From positions 9,208 through 24,008 of the forward strand of contig JAUNSN010000019.1 of NCBI GenBank assembly GCA_030539175.1: 14,801 bases of DNA. Reading direction: 5' to 3'. Shown here one piece after another: positions 2,451-14,801 of the stretch. Origin of the DNA: a bacterium. GTDB lineage: Bacteria > Bacillota_I > Bacilli_A > RF39 > UBA660. A model generated the notes under the pieces. It had not been told where the DNA came from, made no database searches, and saw nothing but the letters and a program-made list of their open reading frames with translations. How positions within the stretch are numbered: the first letter of the stretch is position 1; each line of letters starts with the position of its first letter. The position numbers were made by a program, and so were the translations under genes.

Positions 2451-2487
2451 AAGTATTAAGAAACACCTTCTTAATACTTTTTTATTT
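2451..2487 (+). terminator. Rho-independent terminator after the 79-aa ORF (possibly bidirectional)
   Basis: Perfect 12-bp stem aagtattaagaa / ttcttaatactt (2451-2462 / 2468-2479) with a 5-nt loop, followed by TTTTaTTT. Confidence 0.65.
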
Positions 2488-2545
2488 AAATATATGGCAA
2501 TTCAGTTAAAATATCTATCTTTAACAATACTTTTATTATTACCTT

Positions 2546-2585
2546 AAAATAGAACAAAGTTATTATAATAACCTTGTTCTATTTT
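2546..2585 (-). terminator. Candidate efp terminator hairpin overlapping the efp stop codon
   Basis: Long palindrome 2546-2585. The stem is 14 bp on minus-strand RNA (one G-U pair), plus an inner palindromic ttatta/taataa. The 3' arm ends in UAUUUU. The U-tract is partly inside the stem, so the call is tentative. Confidence 0.35.
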
Positions 2586-3136
2586 CTTGATACATACTTT
2601 CCATCTTTAGTTGAAATAATAATACTTTCATTTTCATTAATAAATAAAGGTACTCTTACTACTAAACCAGTTTCTACAGTAGCGTCTTTTAAAGCATTAG
2701 TAGCTGTATTACCTTTAACACCAGGTTCAGTTTCAGTAACTAAAACATCGATTTTTTCTGGTAATTCAACCCCTAACATTTCACTTTCATAAAATATAAT
2801 ACTAACTTCTAAACCTTCTTTTAAAAACTTACTTTCATATTCAATATCTTTTTTATTTAAAGATATTTGTTCGTAAGTCTCCATATTCATAAAGTTAAAC
2901 TCATCACCAGTTTTATATAAAAATTGCATCTTTTGTTTATCTATATGAGCAGTAGGTATCTTAATACCAGCATTAAAAGTATTATCTATGATAGCACCCG
3001 TTCTTAAATTCTTTAATTTACTTCTAACAAATGCTGGACCTTTACCAGGTTTAACGTGTTGAAATTCTAAAACTTGATAAATGTTACCATCATAATTAAT
3101 AGTTACTCCATTCTTAAAATCATTTACATTAATCAT
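2579..3136 (-). CDS. efp: Translation elongation factor P
   Basis: 185 aa. [47 protein letters not shown] is the canonical EF-P N-terminal KOW domain with the KPGKG loop. Confidence 0.95.
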
Positions 3137-3360: not shown

Positions 3361-5427
3361 TTATTTAAAAATTTCAAAGTATTTATGAGTTATTTGTGAA
3401 ACTAATCGTTTATTTATTGAATTAGAATAGTTTGAACCATTATGTTCATGAGAAATATTAGGAGATACAGCAACAATACTCATAACTGGATTATCAAATG
3501 GAGCAAATCCTCCAAAGGTTGAAGTAATTGTCTCTGTATCAACATTTCCATCTCCATCAGTATCTATAAAACTTTGAGAAGTTCCTGTTTTACCACCAGC
3601 ATTAGAAGAATAATCTCCCATATAACCACTTCCTAAAATACCATTCATTACTGCATTTAAACCTTGTCTTATTCGATTCATATATTGTTCTTCTAAATCT
3701 ACTTCGCCTTCTACTTTAACTTCAGCATTATATATCTTTGAACCAAGTTTTTCTTTTTCCGTACTTGGAGCATATACTTCTTTTAATAAATAAGGAGTTA
3801 CTCTAAGACCAGAATTAGCTAAAGTATTCATATACTTAGATAATTGAATAGTAGTATATGTATCATACTGACCAATTGCAAAATCAAGTAAATGTCCCCC
3901 TAACCTTGAAGTACCTTTATAACCTAAACTTTCAACTGGCAAATCAATTCCCGTTTTTTCACCTAATCCATAAGATAAATACATACTTCGATATTTATCG
4001 AAAGCTTCTTCATCAATAGAAATAGCATCATTTACAACGTATTCACTTCCCCCTACTCTAAGAGCAATTTTAAACTGATAGACATTAGAAGAAAGCTGTA
4101 AAGCCGTAATATCATTAACATAACCTAAATCTCGCCAAGAACATTTAGCAGGAGTTGCCTTAATATACAAACATTCATCAAACATTGTTTCACCTATACT
4201 AATAGCACCATACTTATAACCAACACTCATTGATGCCCCCTTAACTATAGAACCAGCAGTAACTGGTAAAGTTACAATACCAGGAGTATAATCTTGAATC
4301 TTCTTATTATTATTATCATCATAAACAACCTTTTTACCAGCCATTGCAAGTATCTCTCCAGTAGAAGGATTACTAACAATAACAAAAGAATGATCATAAT
4401 ATTCTGTATTAACATCTCCTTTAGCATTCATAACCTCATAAGACAATATATTCTCTACTTCCCGTTGTAAGTTTATGTCAATCGTTAAGACAATATCATT
4501 GCCCCTACTTCCCGCATCAACTAACTCATAACTATTATCATTAAGAACTCGATAAGTTGCCTTTGTACCTTTTAAATATTCTTCATATTGATATTCTAAA
4601 TAACTAATACCTACTCTATCATTTAATGCGTAGCCCTTATTAACATAATCTTCTGCTAATTCTGCTGGTATTCCCTGAGTATCACTAGAAACTTTACCTA
4701 AAATACTCTTAAAAACATCCCCATAAGGATATATTCTCACCCAATCTAACTTAGTATTAAAACCATCTAACTGACTAACATTCTCAGATATAATGGCATA
4801 TTCTTCTTCAGTAACATCAACATTCTTAATAGTTTTCTCATCATATGAATACCCCTTATTCATTAAATAATATAAATAAGCCGCATGTCTATCTTCTTCA
4901 TTAAACTTCTCGATATCTTCATTAGTCACTCTTTCTAACTTTATCTTCTCTATATCATCACTAGTTATTTTTCTCTCACTTAAACTTTTCCTTTCCTCAT
5001 CAGTAATCCTTGCCTTAGCTTCGTCAGGATTCAACTTAACCCAAAAGTTTTTCAATTGACTAGTAGTAAGTTTTGTATAATCAACAGTCAAATACGACAA
5101 CACCTTATAAGCAAGTTCTATTTCTTCTTTTACCGTAACACCTTTACTCTTCTTATAATATATTGTCTTTATAGCTTTATTATCTACTAATAAGTTATAA
5201 TTTCTATCATAAATTCTTCCTCTAGGAGCAGAACTACCCTCAACAGTAGTCTCTACTGCAGCAAGTAATTTTTCTTGATATGACTCACTATCAAGTATTA
5301 TTACAGAAAACAATTTAAAAGTTATTAAAGAAAATATCATTATTATTACAATTATTAAAAAAGTATATCGTTTCTCTATAATATCTTTTAAAAATCTTTT
5401 TTTCTCTTTTTTTCTTGCATTCTTCAT
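3361..5427 (-). CDS. Class B penicillin-binding protein (PBP2-type transpeptidase)
   Basis: 688 aa with an N-terminal TM anchor and the dimerisation-domain motif [10 protein letters not shown]. Transpeptidase motifs are SxxK (SIVK), SxN (SSN) and KTG (GGKTGTSQ). RBS AAGGAGGAG lies before the ATG at 5427. Confidence 0.9.
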
Positions 5428-5510
5428 AATTCTCCTCCTTACATATTTTATTATATAATAAATAATTAATATAATAAAGATATTTTACATAATATTAAAC
5501 AGGTGATTAA

Positions 5511-5759
5511 ATGAATAAATATTTTATTATCGAATATATTAACAAATTAACGAAAAACGATTATTATAAGTATTTAAAGAAAAATAATATTTCTATTGAA
5601 GAAAAAGATTTAGACTTTCTTTTTAATTATATTAAAAAGAACAAAGAACGCATTTTAGATAATCCCATAACACATTTAAACTACCTTAAAACCGTTCTTC
5701 CAAATAATACTTATAAAACATTAGAACAATTATATTATAAATATCAAACTTATTTATAG
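5511..5759 (+). CDS. Small conserved hypothetical, DUF2624/YqfT-like
   Basis: RBS AGGTGA before the ATG. 82 aa, helical and K/N-rich. It is convergent with nfo and overlaps it by 10 nt, mirroring the yqfT-yqfS(nfo) neighbourhood of Bacillus subtilis. The family assignment is from memory of the sequence pattern only. Confidence 0.45.
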   Translation: MNKYFIIEYINKLTKNDYYKYLKKNNISIEEKDLDFLFNYIKKNKERILDNPITHLNYLKTVLPNNTYKTLEQLYYKYQTYL

Positions 5760-6664
5760 TATGACCTAATATCATCAATTAAATTACTATTAAATTGCTT
5801 ACTTTTAATCATTTCTATTTCCGTTTTATAAGGAGGAAAAATGCGTTTTTTTTCCTCATTATTAATAGTAACATAAGGAGTTTCTAAAATTTTAGGAATA
5901 TTAGCAAATGCTTTATGATAGATAATTTTTAACAGGTTTTCAAATCCAATTGTTCCATAACCGATATTAGCATGACGATCTTTCTTTACACCTATTTCAT
6001 TATTACTATCATTAATATGTAAACATTGTAAATAGTTTAATCCGACTATTTTATCAAATTCTTCTATTACCTCATCTATCTTAGTAACATCGTAACCACT
6101 ATCATTAATATGACAAGTATCTAAACAAACACCAATTTTATCTTTATTACATATTCCATCAATTATAGTTTTTATATCAGTAAAATTTCCCCCAATTTCA
6201 TTACCTTTACCAGCCATTGTTTCTAATAATATCATTACATCATGATCATTAGCAAGAATAATGTTTAATGCTTCTATAATATTATTAATTCCCTCTTCTT
6301 TACTTATACCAACACTAGAACCAGGATGTAATATTATTTTTTTTACTCCTAGCTCAACACATCTTTTAATTTCTGATGTTAAAAAACTAATTGAAAAATT
6401 ATAATTTCTTTTAACTTTCTTATTAGCAAGATTGATTATATATGGAGCATGAACAACAACATTATTAATATCAATATTATTTTCTTTCATTAAATTATGC
6501 GCTTCTAAAGTATTAGTTTTAGATATTTCACTTCTTATCGTATTTTGTGGCGCGCCAGTATAAAACATAAAAGCATTTCCCCCATAACTAAGTATTTCTT
6601 GTACTGCACCCACTAAACCAGTATCTTTTTTAAAAGATACATGACTACCAATTATTAACTTCAT
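5750..6664 (-). CDS. nfo: Endonuclease IV (AP endonuclease, TIM-barrel)
   Basis: IGSHVS, HAPYIINLA, HPGS, LETMAGKGNEIG, CLDTCH, HINDS and DRHANIGYGTIG match the Nfo metal-ligand motifs. The ATG at 6664 is preferred over the TTG at 6676 because GGAGGT lies 5 nt upstream of it. Confidence 0.9.
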   Translation of the reverse strand: MKLIIGSHVSFKKDTGLVGAVQEILSYGGNAFMFYTGAPQNTIRSEISKTNTLEAHNLMKENNIDINNVVVHAPYIINLANKKVKRNYNFSISFLTSEIKRCVELGVKKIILHPGSSVGISKEEGINNIIEALNIILANDHDVMILLETMAGKGNEIGGNFTDIKTIIDGICNKDKIGVCLDTCHINDSGYDVTKIDEVIEEFDKIVGLNYLQCLHINDSNNEIGVKKDRHANIGYGTIGFENLLKIIYHKAFANIPKILETPYVTINNEEKKRIFPPYKTEIEMIKSKQFNSNLIDDIRSYYK

Positions 6665-7940: not shown

Positions 7941-8801
7941 TTAATTTCTAGGATGAGTTCTATAATAAACTTCCATCATATGTTCATCAGTTACATGTGT
8001 ATAAATACTAGTTGTATTTAAAGATTCATGACCTAGTAATTCTTTAACACTCATTAAATCCATTCCATTATTTAATAAATGAGTCGCAAAAGTATGTCTT
8101 AATGTATGGACAGTTGCTTTTAATTCAATACAACTATTAACTAATATTTTATCAAAAACTTTCCTTACCCCTCTTGTAGTAATATTACCACCCATTTTAT
8201 TTAAAAAAAGATAATCACTATTATACTTATTTAACATACCACGAACATCTAAATAATTACTTAATGCTTTTTCACAATAACTTCCATAAAATACATATCT
8301 TTGTTTACTTCTTTTTCCCAATACTTTAATTGATAAATCATCATAATTAATATCACTTAATTTTATATTAACCAATTCACTAATTCTAAGACCAGTTGAA
8401 TATAACATTTCAATTATTAAATAATTTCTTTTCCCTAAAACAGTAGTAACATCAATCGTATCTAATATTTTATCAATTTCATCGATTCTAAAAAAAGTTG
8501 GTAAACACTTCTCATACTTAGGATTCTTTATTTCATCAAAATAATTATATTTAACAATTCTTTCTTTTAATAAATAATTATAATATCCACGTAATGATGA
8601 TAACTTTCTAGCAATTGTCTTCTTAGTTAATCCCCTATCATATAAAGCACTTAAATAAAGTCTAACATCATCATTAGTAATATCTTGATAATTAACACTT
8701 ATAAAAGCAATAAACTCTTTTATATCGCATTTATAACTGTTTATAGTATCAACAGAATACTTTTTTATTACTTTTAAATATTGTAAGTATTTATCTACCA
8801 T
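7941..8801 (-). CDS. Tyrosine site-specific recombinase, XerC/XerD family
   Basis: N-terminal SAM-like core-binding domain (YLxxL...SxxTIxSYxxDIxxF). The catalytic residues are the Arg in GLRISEL, HTLRHTFATHLL, LGHESLNTT and IYTHV. The C-terminus ends in HPR, as in Xer proteins. Confidence 0.85.
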   Translation of the reverse strand: MVDKYLQYLKVIKKYSVDTINSYKCDIKEFIAFISVNYQDITNDDVRLYLSALYDRGLTKKTIARKLSSLRGYYNYLLKERIVKYNYFDEIKNPKYEKCLPTFFRIDEIDKILDTIDVTTVLGKRNYLIIEMLYSTGLRISELVNIKLSDINYDDLSIKVLGKRSKQRYVFYGSYCEKALSNYLDVRGMLNKYNSDYLFLNKMGGNITTRGVRKVFDKILVNSCIELKATVHTLRHTFATHLLNNGMDLMSVKELLGHESLNTTSIYTHVTDEHMMEVYYRTHPRN

Positions 8802-9603
8802 TTTTATATCCTAAATCATCAAAAGTTAGTTGTTCATCAACAACATGTTTATTTTTATTATTATAAATATAAGATTTATTCAAAGAATCTTTATTAGAAA
8901 TACAAAAAGCTATTAAAGGATTAGTCGACCCATCATTTATCCATGTACTTAAAAAATCACCATACATCTTAAGTGTATATTTATTAAACTCTATACCATA
9001 TTTTAAAAAAGTATTCGCAACAGTATCAAGATTATAATAATCACACTCTTCTTTATAAGCTTCTCTTTGCTCTTCTACATCTTGCATTAAAACATCTTCT
9101 TTTTTCCGAGGATGTAACAGAAAATAAGCATCACGATATTTCCTATAAGTACTCAAATAAGAAGAAACTATTTTTCCTATCTCATATATCTCATTATCAT
9201 CACTATATTTCTCTACTTGAGAATTATAGTGATATACATACCAACATCTTCTCACAAAATCATTTTTACTTGTTAAGGTTCTTTTACAAGCAGATGGACA
9301 AATAAGTTTAATTAAACTATCAATATTATCTTTACTACTACATATATACTTTAGATATTCTAATTTTATAGACTCAGTTTCTTTTAAGTTTTTAGCATCA
9401 TTATTATAAACAATATTTAACTTTTTCTTCTCTTTATACCTAATAGTTACTTTACCTTTAGTCATACCATTATCATTAAGTAATTCTTTTACACTTTCAT
9501 ATTTAGAAGTATAGTTATCAATTTCTTTTAAATTACAATTACTCATTAATATTCTGCTCTTGCCAAATTCATCAATTAATACTAACTCATATGTTACTTT
9601 CAT
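8791..9603 (-). CDS. Hypothetical protein (270 aa), no recognisable family; translationally coupled to the Xer gene
   Basis: Long open frame in a stop-rich AT genome. RBS AAGGAGAG lies 7 nt before the ATG at 9603. The stop overlaps the Xer start by 11 nt. No TM segment or catalytic motif was recognised. Confidence 0.6.
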   Translation of the reverse strand: MKVTYELVLIDEFGKSRILMSNCNLKEIDNYTSKYESVKELLNDNGMTKGKVTIRYKEKKKLNIVYNNDAKNLKETESIKLEYLKYICSSKDNIDSLIKLICPSACKRTLTSKNDFVRRCWYVYHYNSQVEKYSDDNEIYEIGKIVSSYLSTYRKYRDAYFLLHPRKKEDVLMQDVEEQREAYKEECDYYNLDTVANTFLKYGIEFNKYTLKMYGDFLSTWINDGSTNPLIAFCISNKDSLNKSYIYNNKNKHVVDEQLTFDDLGYKNGR

Positions 9604-10161: not shown

Positions 10162-11259
10162 TTATAAATCAGACAAATCTGCTCGATTACGTAAGAAAGA
10201 TGGTATTTCCAAATCACTTTCGCCATCACTCATTGAGGATATCTTTTCACGTGATATTGGATCTCTTTCCTTGGTTCCTAAATTATGATATAGTGGATCA
10301 CTACGTTGCTCAAAACCAGTTGCAATAACAGTAACAATAACTTCATCAGCTAAATTTTCATTAATAATAGCACCAAATATTGTATTAATATCAGTATTAG
10401 CCGCACTTCTAATAACCTCAGCAGCTTCCTCTACTTCATACAAAGTTAAGTTAGAACCACCAGTAACATTAATTATTGCATCAGTCGCTCCACTTATTGA
10501 AGTTTCCAACAATGGACTAGATACTGCTTGTTTAGCCGCTTCAACAGCTCTATTATCACCAGCACCAACACCAATACCAATTAAAGCATTACCTCTATCT
10601 TGCATAACTGTTTTTACATCAGCAAAGTCCAAATTAACAAGTCCAGCAGTTGCAATTAAATCAGAAATAGACTGAACACCACGTAATAAAACATTATCAA
10701 CTTCACGAAAAGCTTCTAACATTGGAGTAGATTTATCTATCAATTCTCTTAATCGATCATTAGGTATTACTATTAAAGTATCAACATACTTTTTTAATTC
10801 TTCTAACCCAGCAAGAGCTTGTTCCATCCTTCTTCTTCCCTCAAAAGAAAATGGTTTAGTAACAATACCCACAGTCAAAGCTCCCAAATCTTGGGCAATT
10901 TCGGCAACTATAGGAGAAGCACCAGTTCCTGTTCCTCCACCCATGCCACAAGTAACAAAGACCATATCCGCCCCCTTTAGAACTTCTTCAATTTCTTTCT
11001 TACTTTCTAAAGCCGCCTCTCTACCAATTTCTGGATTAGCCCCAGCACCAAGACCATCCGTTAACTCACTACCAATTTGTAACTTATTAGTTGCTTGTGA
11101 ATTATTTAAAACCTGTAAATCAGTATTAGCAACAATAAACTCAACGCCTTTTAACCCTGACTCTATCATTCTATTTACTGCATTACAACCTCCCCCACCA
11201 ACACCAATTACTTTTATTTTTGCTAAATTATCCATTTCTAAACCAAACATATTTGTCAT
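10162..11259 (-). CDS. ftsZ: Cell division protein FtsZ
   Basis: [17 protein letters not shown], the tubulin signature GGGTGTG ([13 protein letters not shown]), NDRL, and the C-terminal conserved peptide DLEIPSFLR. The start overlaps the ftsA stop (TAATG), and the RBS AGGAGG lies inside the ftsA 3' end. Confidence 0.97.
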
Positions 11260-12512
11260 TATTTTTCCTCCTTACTACTAAATAAACCACCAAAAAGTTT
11301 TGTAATCTTTGTATCATCATGTTTCCGAGCTTTATCATCACTAGGAGTAACCAGTTGCAATTCTTCCAAAGAATTTACCATAGAATAGTCTTTACCCCTA
11401 ACTAACATCTTATGATGAAAATATTTTATCATCCCTAAACTTGTAGTATATTTATTATCTCTTACCCCCAATGTTGGTATTGAATATATTATAACATCTT
11501 TTCCAAAAATTTCATAGGCTAAATACTTAAATGATTTAATTTCTGTCATTCCCCCAGTTATTATAACATAACTAATACTTTGTTTAGTTAATGATAATAT
11601 TTGTTTTTTTACTATCGCCATTATCTCTTTTAATCGCGACATTATAACTTCACAAGTTTCTAATTGATTTATTTTCACCATCTCTCCATTACTATTTTTA
11701 ACCTCATAAACATCATTTAATTGAGTAAAACGTTTATGAGCACATCCAAACTTTTCTTTCATTTCTCGAGCATCAATTACATTAATTCCAAACACTACAG
11801 ACAAATCATTATCAATATTCTTTCCCCCTAGTTGAATTACTGAAGTATTCATTAATTTTGCCTTATTAACTATTGATACAGTAGTTGTTTGATGCCCTAA
11901 GTTAATAACTGCCCCTACTTGCTTATCTAACTGATTATTCCGAACTTCGTAATAATCTCCAATACCAGACAAAGTAATATCAACAACTTCTAATCCCGCT
12001 CCAACTACAACACTAACAACTGAATAAACATTTTTCTGGGGAACAGAAACAATAATACCTTTCATCAGCAATTTTTTTCCTTTAATACCAACTGGAAACT
12101 CTAAATTCTTAATATCATCAACCGTAAAATTAATTGGTATAACAGTAACCAGTTCAAAATCAGGATCTATCTTTTTATAAACACTATTCTTAATTATTTT
12201 ATTAACATCAAAACTAGTAACCCCCTCATCAGATAAATCTAATGACTCATTTACAAGTATAAACTTCACATCATAAGCTGGAACTCCAACAATAACCTTT
12301 TTAATTGGAATACCTAGTAAATTCTCTACTTCTTTACTACCATCTTTTATCGCATTAATTGCTAAATTGGCATCCACTATTAAACCTTTTCTAATTCCAG
12401 AAGATTTCTTAGCATAAGAAGCTAGTACTACAACCTCTTTACCAACCACTTCTCCAACTACAAACTTAATCGTATCCGTACCAATATCAATACTTGTATA
12501 AATCTTTCTCAT
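11259..12512 (-). CDS. ftsA: Cell division protein FtsA
   Basis: Actin-like fold N-terminus [18 protein letters not shown], an ITGGMTEI phosphate-2-like motif, and a C-terminal amphipathic tail KLFGGLFSS. Canonical position upstream of ftsZ. Confidence 0.95.
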
Positions 12513-12697: not shown

Positions 12698-12742
12698 AAT
12701 TATATCAATCAATAAAATATCATTTTATTGATTGATATAATT
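12698..12742. repeat. Perfect 21-bp inverted repeat with a 3-nt loop, spanning the RT stop codon
   Basis: aattatatcaatcaataaaat (12698-12718) and attttattgattgatataatt (12722-12742) are exact reverse complements. The RT stop TAA (12727..12725) lies inside one arm. No U-tract follows on either strand. Confidence 0.9.
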
Positions 12743-13750
12743 TACTCGACTATTTACCTTCTTCATTAAGTTATAACTATTACCATGCATTGCATGACCA
12801 ACAATCGAGTTATAACTTAATATAAATCTCTTCTTATCTAACTTATTATCACTATATAACTTATTCCATAACTTTATTCTTTTATTAACATTCTTCTTAA
12901 AACTATTTCTTACTAATCGATATTCTTCATATATTCTATAACCACAAAAATTTATCCCCATCTTATTAGGATAATATCTACTTTTAGGATTTAATGTTAA
13001 CTTTAATTCTTTATTTAAAAATTCCTCTACTAATCTATATATTAACTTACTCTTTATTTTATCCTCTACCAATATAACAAAATCATCCATATATCTTACA
13101 TAATACTTAATCTTTAATATATCTTTTATATAAAAATCTAACTTACTTAAATATATATTAGCAAAATACTGACTACTATAAGCCCCTATCCCTATACCAG
13201 TAGAAGCATCATCCATATATATAAAACTCTTAGTTATCTCTAATATCTTCTTATCACTTATCTTATCCGCTAATATCTCATATAATATAACCTTATCTAT
13301 ACTATAAAAATATTTCCTTATATCTAACTTAATAACATAATACCCCGCATATTTTTCTCTCATCTTTCTCATATACCCCTGTAATACATCCACTGCCTTA
13401 TGTGTCCCCCTATTATCTAAACAAGCATAAGTATCTTTCTTAAACCTAACATCAAAATAAGGCTTTATCACCTCAAACGTATACCAATTATTAACAACCC
13501 TATCTCTATACGGCAGAGCCTTAATCACTCGTTCTTTAGGTTCATATATAACAAATTCTCTTGGTTTTCCCACTTTATAAGTATTATTCTTTAAACTATT
13601 TAATATATTAATCACATTAGTTTCAATATCCATATTAAAACTAAGAACTTCCTTAGTATTTTTACAACTAGAACTTACTCGATGCGATGCCTCTAACAAT
13701 TTGACAAAAGTACAACATTTGTCAAATTGGTTGCGAACAGTTTTTCCCAT
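12725..13750 (-). CDS. Diversity-generating retroelement (DGR) reverse transcriptase
   Basis: 341 aa and collinear with Bordetella phage BPP-1 bRT as recalled: MGK start, REFVIYEPKERVIKALPYRDRVV, TYACLDNRGTHKA, KLDIRKYFYSID, the DGR-specific GIGIGAYSSQYFANIYL (IGxxxSQ), YVRYMDDFVIL (YxDD), GINFCGYRI, and the C-terminal SIVGHAMHG. No intron maturase/endonuclease domain or retron-type domain is present. Confidence 0.9.
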   Translation of the reverse strand: MGKTVRNQFDKCCTFVKLLEASHRVSSSCKNTKEVLSFNMDIETNVINILNSLKNNTYKVGKPREFVIYEPKERVIKALPYRDRVVNNWYTFEVIKPYFDVRFKKDTYACLDNRGTHKAVDVLQGYMRKMREKYAGYYVIKLDIRKYFYSIDKVILYEILADKISDKKILEITKSFIYMDDASTGIGIGAYSSQYFANIYLSKLDFYIKDILKIKYYVRYMDDFVILVEDKIKSKLIYRLVEEFLNKELKLTLNPKSRYYPNKMGINFCGYRIYEEYRLVRNSFKKNVNKRIKLWNKLYSDNKLDKKRFILSYNSIVGHAMHGNSYNLMKKVNSRVNYINQ

Positions 13751-14090
13751 TTTTCATCCATCCATACAATAAATTAGTCACATCCGTTATCTTTCTTGCC
13801 CAAGCTTCATAATTTCTTACATTAATAAATCTTTGACTATAAGATATTCGAGATAATACTTTTATCATCTTAAGTTCAGCATCTATTTCATTAAATAAGT
13901 GATATCTATTAGTTTTATCAGATTCTTTATATGCTTTAATAATTAATCTCATCGTATTATAACTTACATTTTTAATTTGACTTACTAACGATAGTTTTTC
14001 ACTTTTAGGATATTTTTTAACTATCATCTCTGTATAGTATAAAAGACCCATCATTTGTTTATATATTAACAACCCATCAATACTATTCAT
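13722..14090 (-). CDS. avd: Avd-type accessory variability determinant (four-helix-bundle / 23S rRNA-IVS protein family)
   Basis: 122 aa and predicted helical. Family pattern YPKSEKLSLVSQIKNVSYNTMRLIIKAY and a C-terminal W..K...V..LLYGWMK. The ATGA overlap with the upstream ORF implies coupling, and there is a 29-nt out-of-frame overlap with the RT start. Confidence 0.8.
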   Translation of the reverse strand: MNSIDGLLIYKQMMGLLYYTEMIVKKYPKSEKLSLVSQIKNVSYNTMRLIIKAYKESDKTNRYHLFNEIDAELKMIKVLSRISYSQRFINVRNYEAWARKITDVTNLLYGWMKNGKNCSQPI

Positions 14091-14437
14091 ACCAATTCCC
14101 TTAATTCATTCAATTTTTTAAAAGCATCTATTGGTGTTAAATTATCAAAGTCTATTTCTTTTAACTTCTTAGTTAAAAGATGCTCCGCTTGTTCTTTATC
14201 TACTTCAACCATCACAATATCCAAATTCATATTTTTAAATATCAACAAATACTTATCCAAAGATTTAATAGGAAACCCACATCTTTTCATCTTACCAAAA
14301 TATCCCAACTTTAAAGTAGTAACTTGCGATATTTTAACTGCATCTTCTTCTAAAAATAAATAAAATATCCCACTTTTAAATAAATATATCTTATCTTTAT
14401 TTTCAGCCTTTAGTTTTTTATACTTCTCTTCGTACAC
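14087..14437 (-). CDS. MutS domain-I-like small protein (MSL-type DGR accessory ORF)
   Basis: 116 aa with a GTG start after [43 protein letters not shown] aligns with the E. coli MutS N-terminus [48 protein letters not shown] aligns with AGIPYHAVENYLAKL. No ATPase or clamp domains are present. Confidence 0.7.
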   Translation of the reverse strand: [116 protein letters not shown]

Positions 14438-14496
14438 TTTTCTTCTTCCCTTCTAACTTTCAATCAACTCTCATAACAGCATCATTTATAAGAGCC

Positions 14497-14536
14497 TTCC
14501 TAAAACCTAAAAGTAAAAACTTTTAGGTTTTAGGAA
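14497..14536. repeat. Perfect 17-bp inverted repeat with a 6-nt loop in the non-coding spacer upstream of the DGR operon
   Basis: ttcctaaaacctaaaag (14497-14513) and cttttaggttttaggaa (14520-14536) are exact reverse complements. Each arm contains a tandem cctaaaa heptamer. No U-tract follows on either strand. Confidence 0.9.
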
Positions 14537-14702
14537 AACAATAGTTTTCCCACAACATTCTAATGCGCAAATACTCTACTAACTAGTTTGTTGCTAGTAA
14601 ATGTTTATTACAATACCTAAAGATATCATAACAGGACATTGGTCTTGACTATCAGACTATTGATGTTAATCCTTAAACTAACATATTTAAAGTATATTTG
14701 AT

Positions 14703-14801
14703 AGTAATCGCAAGCCACAAAGGCCGACGCCCGCGAGCCGTTGTTATTGTTCGCATTGCCATTGTTGTTGTTAAAGTTGAACGCGCCCGCATTGGCACCA
14801 T
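14703..14801 (-). repeat. DGR template repeat (TR) candidate, truncated by the window edge; the alternative is an undiversified variable repeat (VR)
   Basis: Minus-strand frame from 14799 reads GANAGAFNFNNNNGNANNNNGSRASAFVAC. All 22 adenines in the first 30 codons sit in 11 AAY codons. About 54% G+C by hand count (14711-14801), against AT-rich flanks. Contains the GC block GGCTCGCGGGCGTCGGCC (14739..14722). Confidence 0.7.

Follow-up and report, generated by a model that had tools for sequence, protein, structure and literature searches.

At the very edge of the 14,801-nt stretch of DNA analyzed here (the window), where its contig also ends, lies a short GC-rich block in which adenine, read on the minus strand, seems to be confined to Asn codons. 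A preliminary description made from the letters of the window proposed that this block is the template repeat (TR) of a DGR, cut by the window edge. The question is whether the block is indeed a TR and, if so, what kind of DGR it belongs to and where the corresponding VR would lie. The analyses described below indicate that the block (14801..14707, minus strand) is, with high probability, the 3′ two-thirds of a functional TR in a chromosomal MSL-type DGR of an uncultured, gut-type member of the Bacillota.

Adenine placement and base composition of the block

The features at the window edge are as follows. The 3′ boundary of the TR was taken from the start of the RNA element that abuts it.

14707..14801, minus strand: 3′ part of the TR, ~95 nt, assigned by its AAY adenines, its alignment to the TRs of the related loci L004/L005 and L009, a peptide match, and its position
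14722..14739, minus strand: 18-nt G/C-only block GGCTCGCGGGCGTCGGCC, encoding GSRASA, at the adenine-free 3′ end of the TR

The minus-strand reading given in the preliminary description was exact. The 30 codons from 14799 to 14710 contain 22 adenines, all of which fall within 11 AAY codons (seven AAC and four AAT), and the other 19 codons contain none. The translation of the block is GANAGAFNFNNNNGNANNNNG. Placement of every adenine in an in-frame AAY codon was reproduced in 0 of 200,000 mononucleotide shuffles of the block. When 30-codon stretches were scored as the number of AAY codons minus the number of adenines elsewhere, the block reached +11, and the best other stretch in the six frames of the window reached −1. 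Given the same amino acids and the codon usage of the window, the chance of finding no adenine in the 19 non-Asn codons is 2.6e-4. The sequence GGCTCGCGGGCGTCGGCC occurs once in the window, even with three mismatches tolerated.

The unusual codon usage claimed for the block is also evident. Its GC3 is 0.73, compared with 0.11–0.25 in nine window genes, and 15 of its 19 non-Asn codons end in G or C. AAC accounts for 7 of its 11 Asn codons versus 7% of those in the window genes, where 93% are AAT. The GC content is 0.56 for the 90-nt block and 0.27 for the window.

The repeat is cut by the window edge. A Logan assembly of the same DNA (L001, 5,652 nt) is identical to the window over 5,643 nt and ends 9 nt beyond it (acgcgagta), still inside the repeat. 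This extension continues the frame as xAC GCG AGT AAT and includes one adenine outside an AAY codon, in AGT. The remaining 40–60 nt of the TR at its 5′ side are estimated to fall past the end of the window and contig.

A 42-aa ORF starting with ATG overlies the block in a different frame (14673..14801, minus strand). Public protein sets likewise hold “proteins” of 42–75 aa that are TR translations (P0123–P0132); these are spurious ORF calls, which could offer an inexpensive way of locating TRs in protein databases.

Cassette genes and genomic context

Three ORFs follow on the same strand.

14087..14437, minus strand: MSL accessory gene, 116 aa, MutS domain I only (Pfam MutS_I, E = 6.7e-11)
13722..14090, minus strand: avd accessory gene, 122 aa, four-helix bundle (Pfam bAvd, E = 7.7e-18)
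12725..13750, minus strand: DGR reverse transcriptase (RT), 341 aa (RVT_1, E = 9.6e-14)

All three are intact, co-directional, and overlapping: the MSL gene starts 269 nt downstream of the block, avd overlaps it by 4 nt, and the RT gene overlaps avd by 29 nt. The RT matched 8ub7_A, which was identified by tblastn as the brt of Bordetella phage BPP-1, over the full length (residues 1–330, E = 5.7e-48); group II intron and retron RTs reached 1e-13 at best. The IGxxxSQ motif typical of DGR RTs is present as IGAYSSQ, aligned to IGSLTSQ, and YMDD is aligned to YMDD. The presence of RT, bAvd, and MSL directly downstream on the same strand, together with the TR homology in relatives described below, supports the proposal that the block is a DGR TR. 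The Avd protein showed no significant match to PDB sequences, and Avd proteins are known to be poorly conserved (PMC5758913). No match to an HRDC gene was found in the cassette. The same proteins are deposited at NCBI as MDO5569257.1–MDO5569259.1 (locus tag Q4G04_04025), from a 24,114-nt MAG contig, under the names “reverse transcriptase/maturase,” “four helix bundle protein” (avd), and “hypothetical protein”; the present analysis identifies these genes as a hypermutation cassette.

The MSL protein matched the N-terminus of MutS structures weakly, and MSL is also present in the cassettes of L002, L004, L006, and L009. The MSL proteins of the window (residues ~23–28) and of these four loci all read G-x-F-Y-(L/I)-F at the site where Escherichia coli MutS reads G-D-F-Y-E-L-F. 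Relative to the E. coli sequence, MSL keeps the mismatch-stacking Phe, and the Glu of Phe-X-Glu is replaced by a hydrophobic residue.

All genes of the window lie on the minus strand. The RT gene is followed by ftsA and ftsZ (10162..12512, minus strand), so that the cassette is found directly upstream of this pair, where a gene of the ftsQ/divIB type is usual. The rest of the window encodes a TrmB-type methyltransferase, EF-P, a PBP transpeptidase, an Nfo-like endonuclease, a sigma factor, and a XerC/D-type recombinase; the recombinase and a 270-aa ORF without a Pfam match are located downstream of ftsZ (7941..9603, minus strand). No phage structural genes were found in the window, and a blastn search of the cassette against a phage database gave no match. 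Based on the housekeeping genes of the window and the lack of phage structural genes among them, the cassette is considered to be chromosomal. In the relatives, the neighborhood is unrelated and includes, for example, spore germination genes or a sulfatase, which indicates that the cassette has moved.

VR/TR pairs in related cassettes

The nearest RTs among 5.8 billion proteins are 52–60% identical to the window RT, and that of L009, taken from the GTDB genomes, is 49% identical. The hosts are gut-type Bacillota, for example, Clostridium sp. CAG:921 and uncultured Clostridium MAGs. In the complete loci (L002, L004/L005, and L009), the order is candidate target gene with VR, TR, RNA, MSL (MutS_I), bAvd, and RT. 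Each of them contains one direct repeat pair, with copy 1 at the 3′ end of the target gene and copy 2 in the gap. The start-to-start spacing from VR to TR is 331–392 nt, and the downstream copy is the adenine-rich one. The mismatches between the two copies are concentrated at TR adenines.

L002: 14 of 15 VR/TR mismatches at TR adenines (binomial p = 2.7e-8)
L004: 22 of 25 (p = 1.1e-8)
L005: 21 of 24 (p = 3.1e-8)
L009: 16 of 23 (p = 5.1e-5)

L004 and L005 represent one element from two samples. Their TRs are identical, and their VRs differ at 27 positions, 20 of which are at TR adenines, with ~1% divergence across 17 kb. This turnover of the VR at TR adenines indicates that the family is diversifying in nature. 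Besides the VR, the target gene body of this pair (5001–6500) accounts for 82 of the 184 differences between the samples, a rate that far exceeds that of the flanks; this excess could be due to recombination or allelic variation of a surface protein, and the TR is not its explanation.

The window block aligns with the 3′ parts of the TRs of L004/L005 and L009, where L004 reads CCAATGCGGGC...TTCAAC..AACAACAACAATGGCAATGC.AACAA. It also occupies the position of the TR in the relatives, between the side of the target gene and VR, which is the contig end here, and MSL. In the search of 5.8 billion proteins, the block peptide matched ORF calls over the TRs of 10 other DGRs, whose TR translations share the motif NPWFxRGGNYNNGANAGAFNFNNNNGNANNNNGFRAVL. 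In the relatives, the VR equals the TR through the GFRxVL-coding segment and diverges just after it. The preliminary description had compared the position of the 18-nt G/C-only block with that of the GC-rich part of an IMH/IMH* element. The block is located where the VR/TR homology of the relatives ends, and its position may thus be called IMH*-like; the equivalent segment in the relatives is A-poor and not G/C-only.

The VR of the relatives forms the extreme C-terminus of the protein (...PWFxRGGyY..AG.F.F....G....GFRxVL). Of 40 family members, 36 matched FGE-sulfatase (PF03781), with a best E value of 9e-6 and most matches below the Pfam curated cut-off. A profile of the target family gave no match to PDB sequences, and an AlphaFold model of the variable protein built from a 40-sequence alignment had a pLDDT of 50.6, which is too poor for fold comparison. 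The resemblance to C-type-lectin/FGE proteins that had been suggested for the block is supported only at the level of the family.

The TRs are rich in GC relative to their surroundings (0.43–0.56 versus 0.19–0.27 in the flanks; window, L002, L004, L006, L007, and L009). The enrichment goes past adenine avoidance, with T-ending synonyms also shunned (GGC, GCG, GCC, TCG, and CGG are used, and AAC is preferred over AAT), and the cassette genes are AT-rich despite it. Duplex stability for priming or homing could be the cause.

Structured RNA downstream of the TR

The segment that separates the TR from the MSL gene contains the following elements.

14552..14706, minus strand: structured non-coding RNA, Rfam RT-14-like, abutting the TR (Rfam match, covariance model, and covariation)
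14663..14684, minus strand: 9-bp stem with a UAAG tetraloop, motif TTTAAGGA; candidate Avd-binding stem-loop (pairing and invariance)
14494..14539, minus strand: perfect 19-bp hairpin between the RNA and the MSL gene, without a T tract, in a terminator-like position

The match to Rfam RT-14 (RF02921) at 14704..14552 covers all 144 model positions and scores 41.7 bits against a gathering score of 48.1; because it lies below this threshold, the element is termed RT-14-like and not a member of RT-14. Full-length sub-threshold RT-14 matches also abut the TR in L007 (41.7 bits) and L004 (38.6 bits). The RNA of L006 had no Rfam match and was found with a covariance model seeded from L007 with the Rfam pairs; this model matched L006, L008, L009, and the window (14706..14552) over its full length. 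The positions of the RT-14-like RNA in the relatives are as follows.

L007: 204–345
L004: 7105–7249
L006: 88–238
L009: 4007–4164

The element is structured and shows covariation. In the alignment fitted to the model, which favors the structure, 91% of the cells pair, compared with 37–48% when the partners are slid, and in the same model-fitted alignment, changes on both sides are found in 28 of 37 pairs versus 3–13 in the slid controls. RNAalifold on a plain MAFFT alignment of the spacers recovered only part of the 3′ helix, and thus the model-guided alignment was needed. In L008 (HF991929.1, Clostridium sp. CAG:921), the RNA (2486–2649, minus strand) is found on the other strand, where it is downstream of a truncated RT ORF (230 aa) and ends at the contig edge; this arrangement reflects either another cassette layout, the presence of a second cassette, or an artefact of the scaffold.

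The TTTAAGGA motif is invariant in the RNA alignment. Its stem pairs at all nine positions in the window and at 7–9 of nine in L004, L006, L007, and L009, and at three of nine in L002 when no gaps are used. Among 278 Avd-containing DGRs, 207 are reported to have putative Avd-binding stem-loops, most commonly of 9 bp with a tetraloop, just 3′ of the TR, and the priming site in BPP-1 is provided by the spacer RNA that follows the TR (Handa et al., bioRxiv 10.1101/2023.10.23.563531). Weinberg et al. (2017) tied only RT-10 to a DGR, locating it in BPP-1 between the TR and brt, and gave a DGR role of the other RT motifs as speculation only (PMC5737381). No paper linking RT-14 to DGRs was found in the literature searched. 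The RT-14-like RNA is probably the spacer (Sp) RNA of MSL-type DGRs, and its predicted functions are priming and Avd binding. For RT-14, an Rfam motif published without a function, the present data provide consistent evidence that it is the TR-adjacent RNA of MSL-type DGRs.

The RNA fold of 14560..14438, a segment that includes the 19-bp hairpin, has an energy of −35.2 kcal/mol (z = −5.3). A scan for consensus promoters and terminators yielded nothing above the shuffle expectation and no terminator at this hairpin. In the relatives, a T run comes after the hairpin at the equivalent place. The hairpin may end or stabilize the TR transcript.

Search for the VR and alternative readings of the block

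No second copy of the block is present within the window. A pattern with N at every adenine (GGCNNTGCGNNCNNTNNCNNCGGCTCGCGGGCGTCGGCC) gave no match in the genome, viral, and metagenome contigs; as it missed even the TR itself, the organism is absent from those collections. The TR-peptide search of 5.8 billion proteins returned only ORF calls over the TRs of other DGRs, and an exhaustive phmmer search of representative proteins with the 30-residue TR translation gave no match. The best 120 of 1,713 matches to a profile of the relatives’ target domain included none from this MAG or with a GSRASAFVAC tail, and no protein with this tail was found in the 5.8-billion-protein search. Two assemblies of the locus end no more than 9 nt apart inside the repeat, and assemblies that break inside the TR suggest that a near-identical second copy exists in the genome. 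The short contigs of L003 and L006 also begin inside their own TRs; L003 is the same element as L002, so the VR of L003 is known to exist. A hypervariable FGE/C-type-lectin surface protein is predicted just past the contig end, next to ftsA–ftsZ.

The failure of the contig pattern, peptide, phmmer, and profile searches to recover a VR would also be expected of an orphan or decayed cassette, in which the TR is real but the VR that belongs to it is either gone or located far away in the genome. Remote targets of DGRs have been documented in Treponema (PMC5758913). We consider this improbable. The three ORFs are intact and overlapping with their catalytic motifs kept, and the perfectly kept AAY-only adenine pattern argues for ongoing selection. 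Every complete relative has its VR 331–392 nt upstream of the TR, and the assembly breaks inside the TR are as expected from a near-identical second copy in the genome.

Less probable still is the reverse assignment, in which the block would be the VR that a target gene carries at its 3′ end, with the TR located elsewhere. The frame of the block does stay open for 27 codons past it, to a TGA at 14631..14629, and the sequence upstream of the block lies unseen past the contig end. However, spurious open frames over the TR plus 20–30 codons are common in the family (P0123–P0132), whereas the VRs of the relatives meet a stop within a few codons and not the TTTAAGGA RNA. The copy beside MSL–avd–RT with an RT-14-like RNA after it is always the adenine-rich TR in the relatives. 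In a diversified VR, many AAY codons would be gone, but all 11 are intact here and match the TR consensus of the family.

Asn-rich stretches are common in AT-rich genomes, but such genomes use AAT. That the block is merely a low-complexity, Asn-rich piece of coding sequence, or a GC island gained by horizontal transfer, has next to no probability and was rejected for practical purposes, because the codon usage and adenine pattern of the block differ from those of the window genes and of its own shuffles as described above, and because only a DGR explains the Brt-type RT, avd, and MSL next to it and the TR homology.

Proposed mechanism

Here, we propose how the element would work with the block read as its TR. 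Of the features of a DGR, the RT clade, the TR, Avd with a further accessory gene, and the flanking structured RNA are present, and the 116-aa MutS_I-only ORF together with avd, without HRDC, makes the element an MSL-type (Architecture D) DGR. The cassette order would be target gene with VR (predicted to lie past the contig end), TR, spacer RNA, hairpin, MSL, avd, and RT. The TR and the RT-14-like RNA would be transcribed as a single non-coding RNA. A complex of RT and Avd would bind this TR RNA, probably via the candidate stem-loop of 9 bp with the UAAG tetraloop, and would reverse-transcribe the TR with misincorporation opposite the template adenines. The cDNA would then replace the homologous VR, presumed from the relatives, at the 3′ end of a gene for a surface protein of the FGE/C-type-lectin type. 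The adenine-free Gly, Ala, Phe, Ser, and Arg codons would stay fixed as a scaffold. Because all adenines of this segment are at positions 1 and 2 of AAY codons, the 11 codons can change to many amino acids but never to a stop. Cis-priming, a role of MSL, and current activity are presumed for this element.

A more speculative and rather doubtful extension would treat the MSL-type DGRs of AT-rich gut Bacillota as a mechanistically distinct subclass, in which RT-14 is the Avd-binding, cis-priming spacer, and MSL handles the adenine-mismatched heteroduplex of cDNA and VR so that the mutations escape or exploit mismatch repair. In this subclass, the GC enrichment of the TR and VR would stabilize the heteroduplex in a genome of 27% GC.

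The present case illustrates that a TR can be called correctly from adenine placement alone, without tools. Two by-products are of most use: RT-14 has been linked to MSL-type DGRs, and the TRs of this family have been found to be GC-enriched well past the level that adenine avoidance demands.

Comparison with known systems

Existing knowledge of DGRs is not changed by this element: DGRs are catalogued in the tens of thousands (~31,000, as cited in bioRxiv 10.1101/2023.10.23.563531), and a description of the MSL class dates from 2018. In that description, MSL genes that co-occur with avd define Architecture D, which comprises 16 of 372 DGRs (Wu, Gingery, Abebe et al., Nucleic Acids Res 2018, PMC5758913). 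The window cassette resembles Architecture D in combining a small MutS-like ORF (112–283 aa in the paper; 116 aa here) with avd and a DGR RT and in lacking HRDC. It differs in its RNA element, which the paper does not describe. The host here is an AT-rich MAG (27% GC), and the nearest RT among 5.8 billion proteins is only 60% identical.

With the BPP-1 DGR (mtd-VR, avd, TR, Sp RNA, and brt), the cassette shares an RT that is a full-length homolog, an Avd-family protein, a TR followed directly by a structured RNA, and adenines in AAY codons, and its stem-loop of 9 bp with a tetraloop resembles the proposed Avd-binding element. In contrast to BPP-1, the cassette is chromosomal and not part of a phage, has the extra MSL gene, and is ordered TR–RNA–MSL–avd–RT instead of avd–TR–Sp–brt. 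Its RNA is RT-14-like, whereas the BPP-1 spacer is RT-10, and the target family, as judged from the relatives, is FGE-sulfatase-like and not Mtd.

The RNA resembles Rfam RT-14 (RF02921, PMC5737381) in that all 144 positions are aligned with the same helices next to an RT gene, but the scores of 38.6–41.7 bits lie below the 48.1-bit gathering threshold. The predicted target resembles the C-type-lectin/FGE-sulfatase proteins of other DGRs, such as Treponema TvpA: in the relatives, the VR lies at the extreme C-terminus and ends in GFRxVL, and the proteins match PF03781. It differs from them in that these PF03781 matches are mostly sub-threshold and that no solved structure was matched by sequence.
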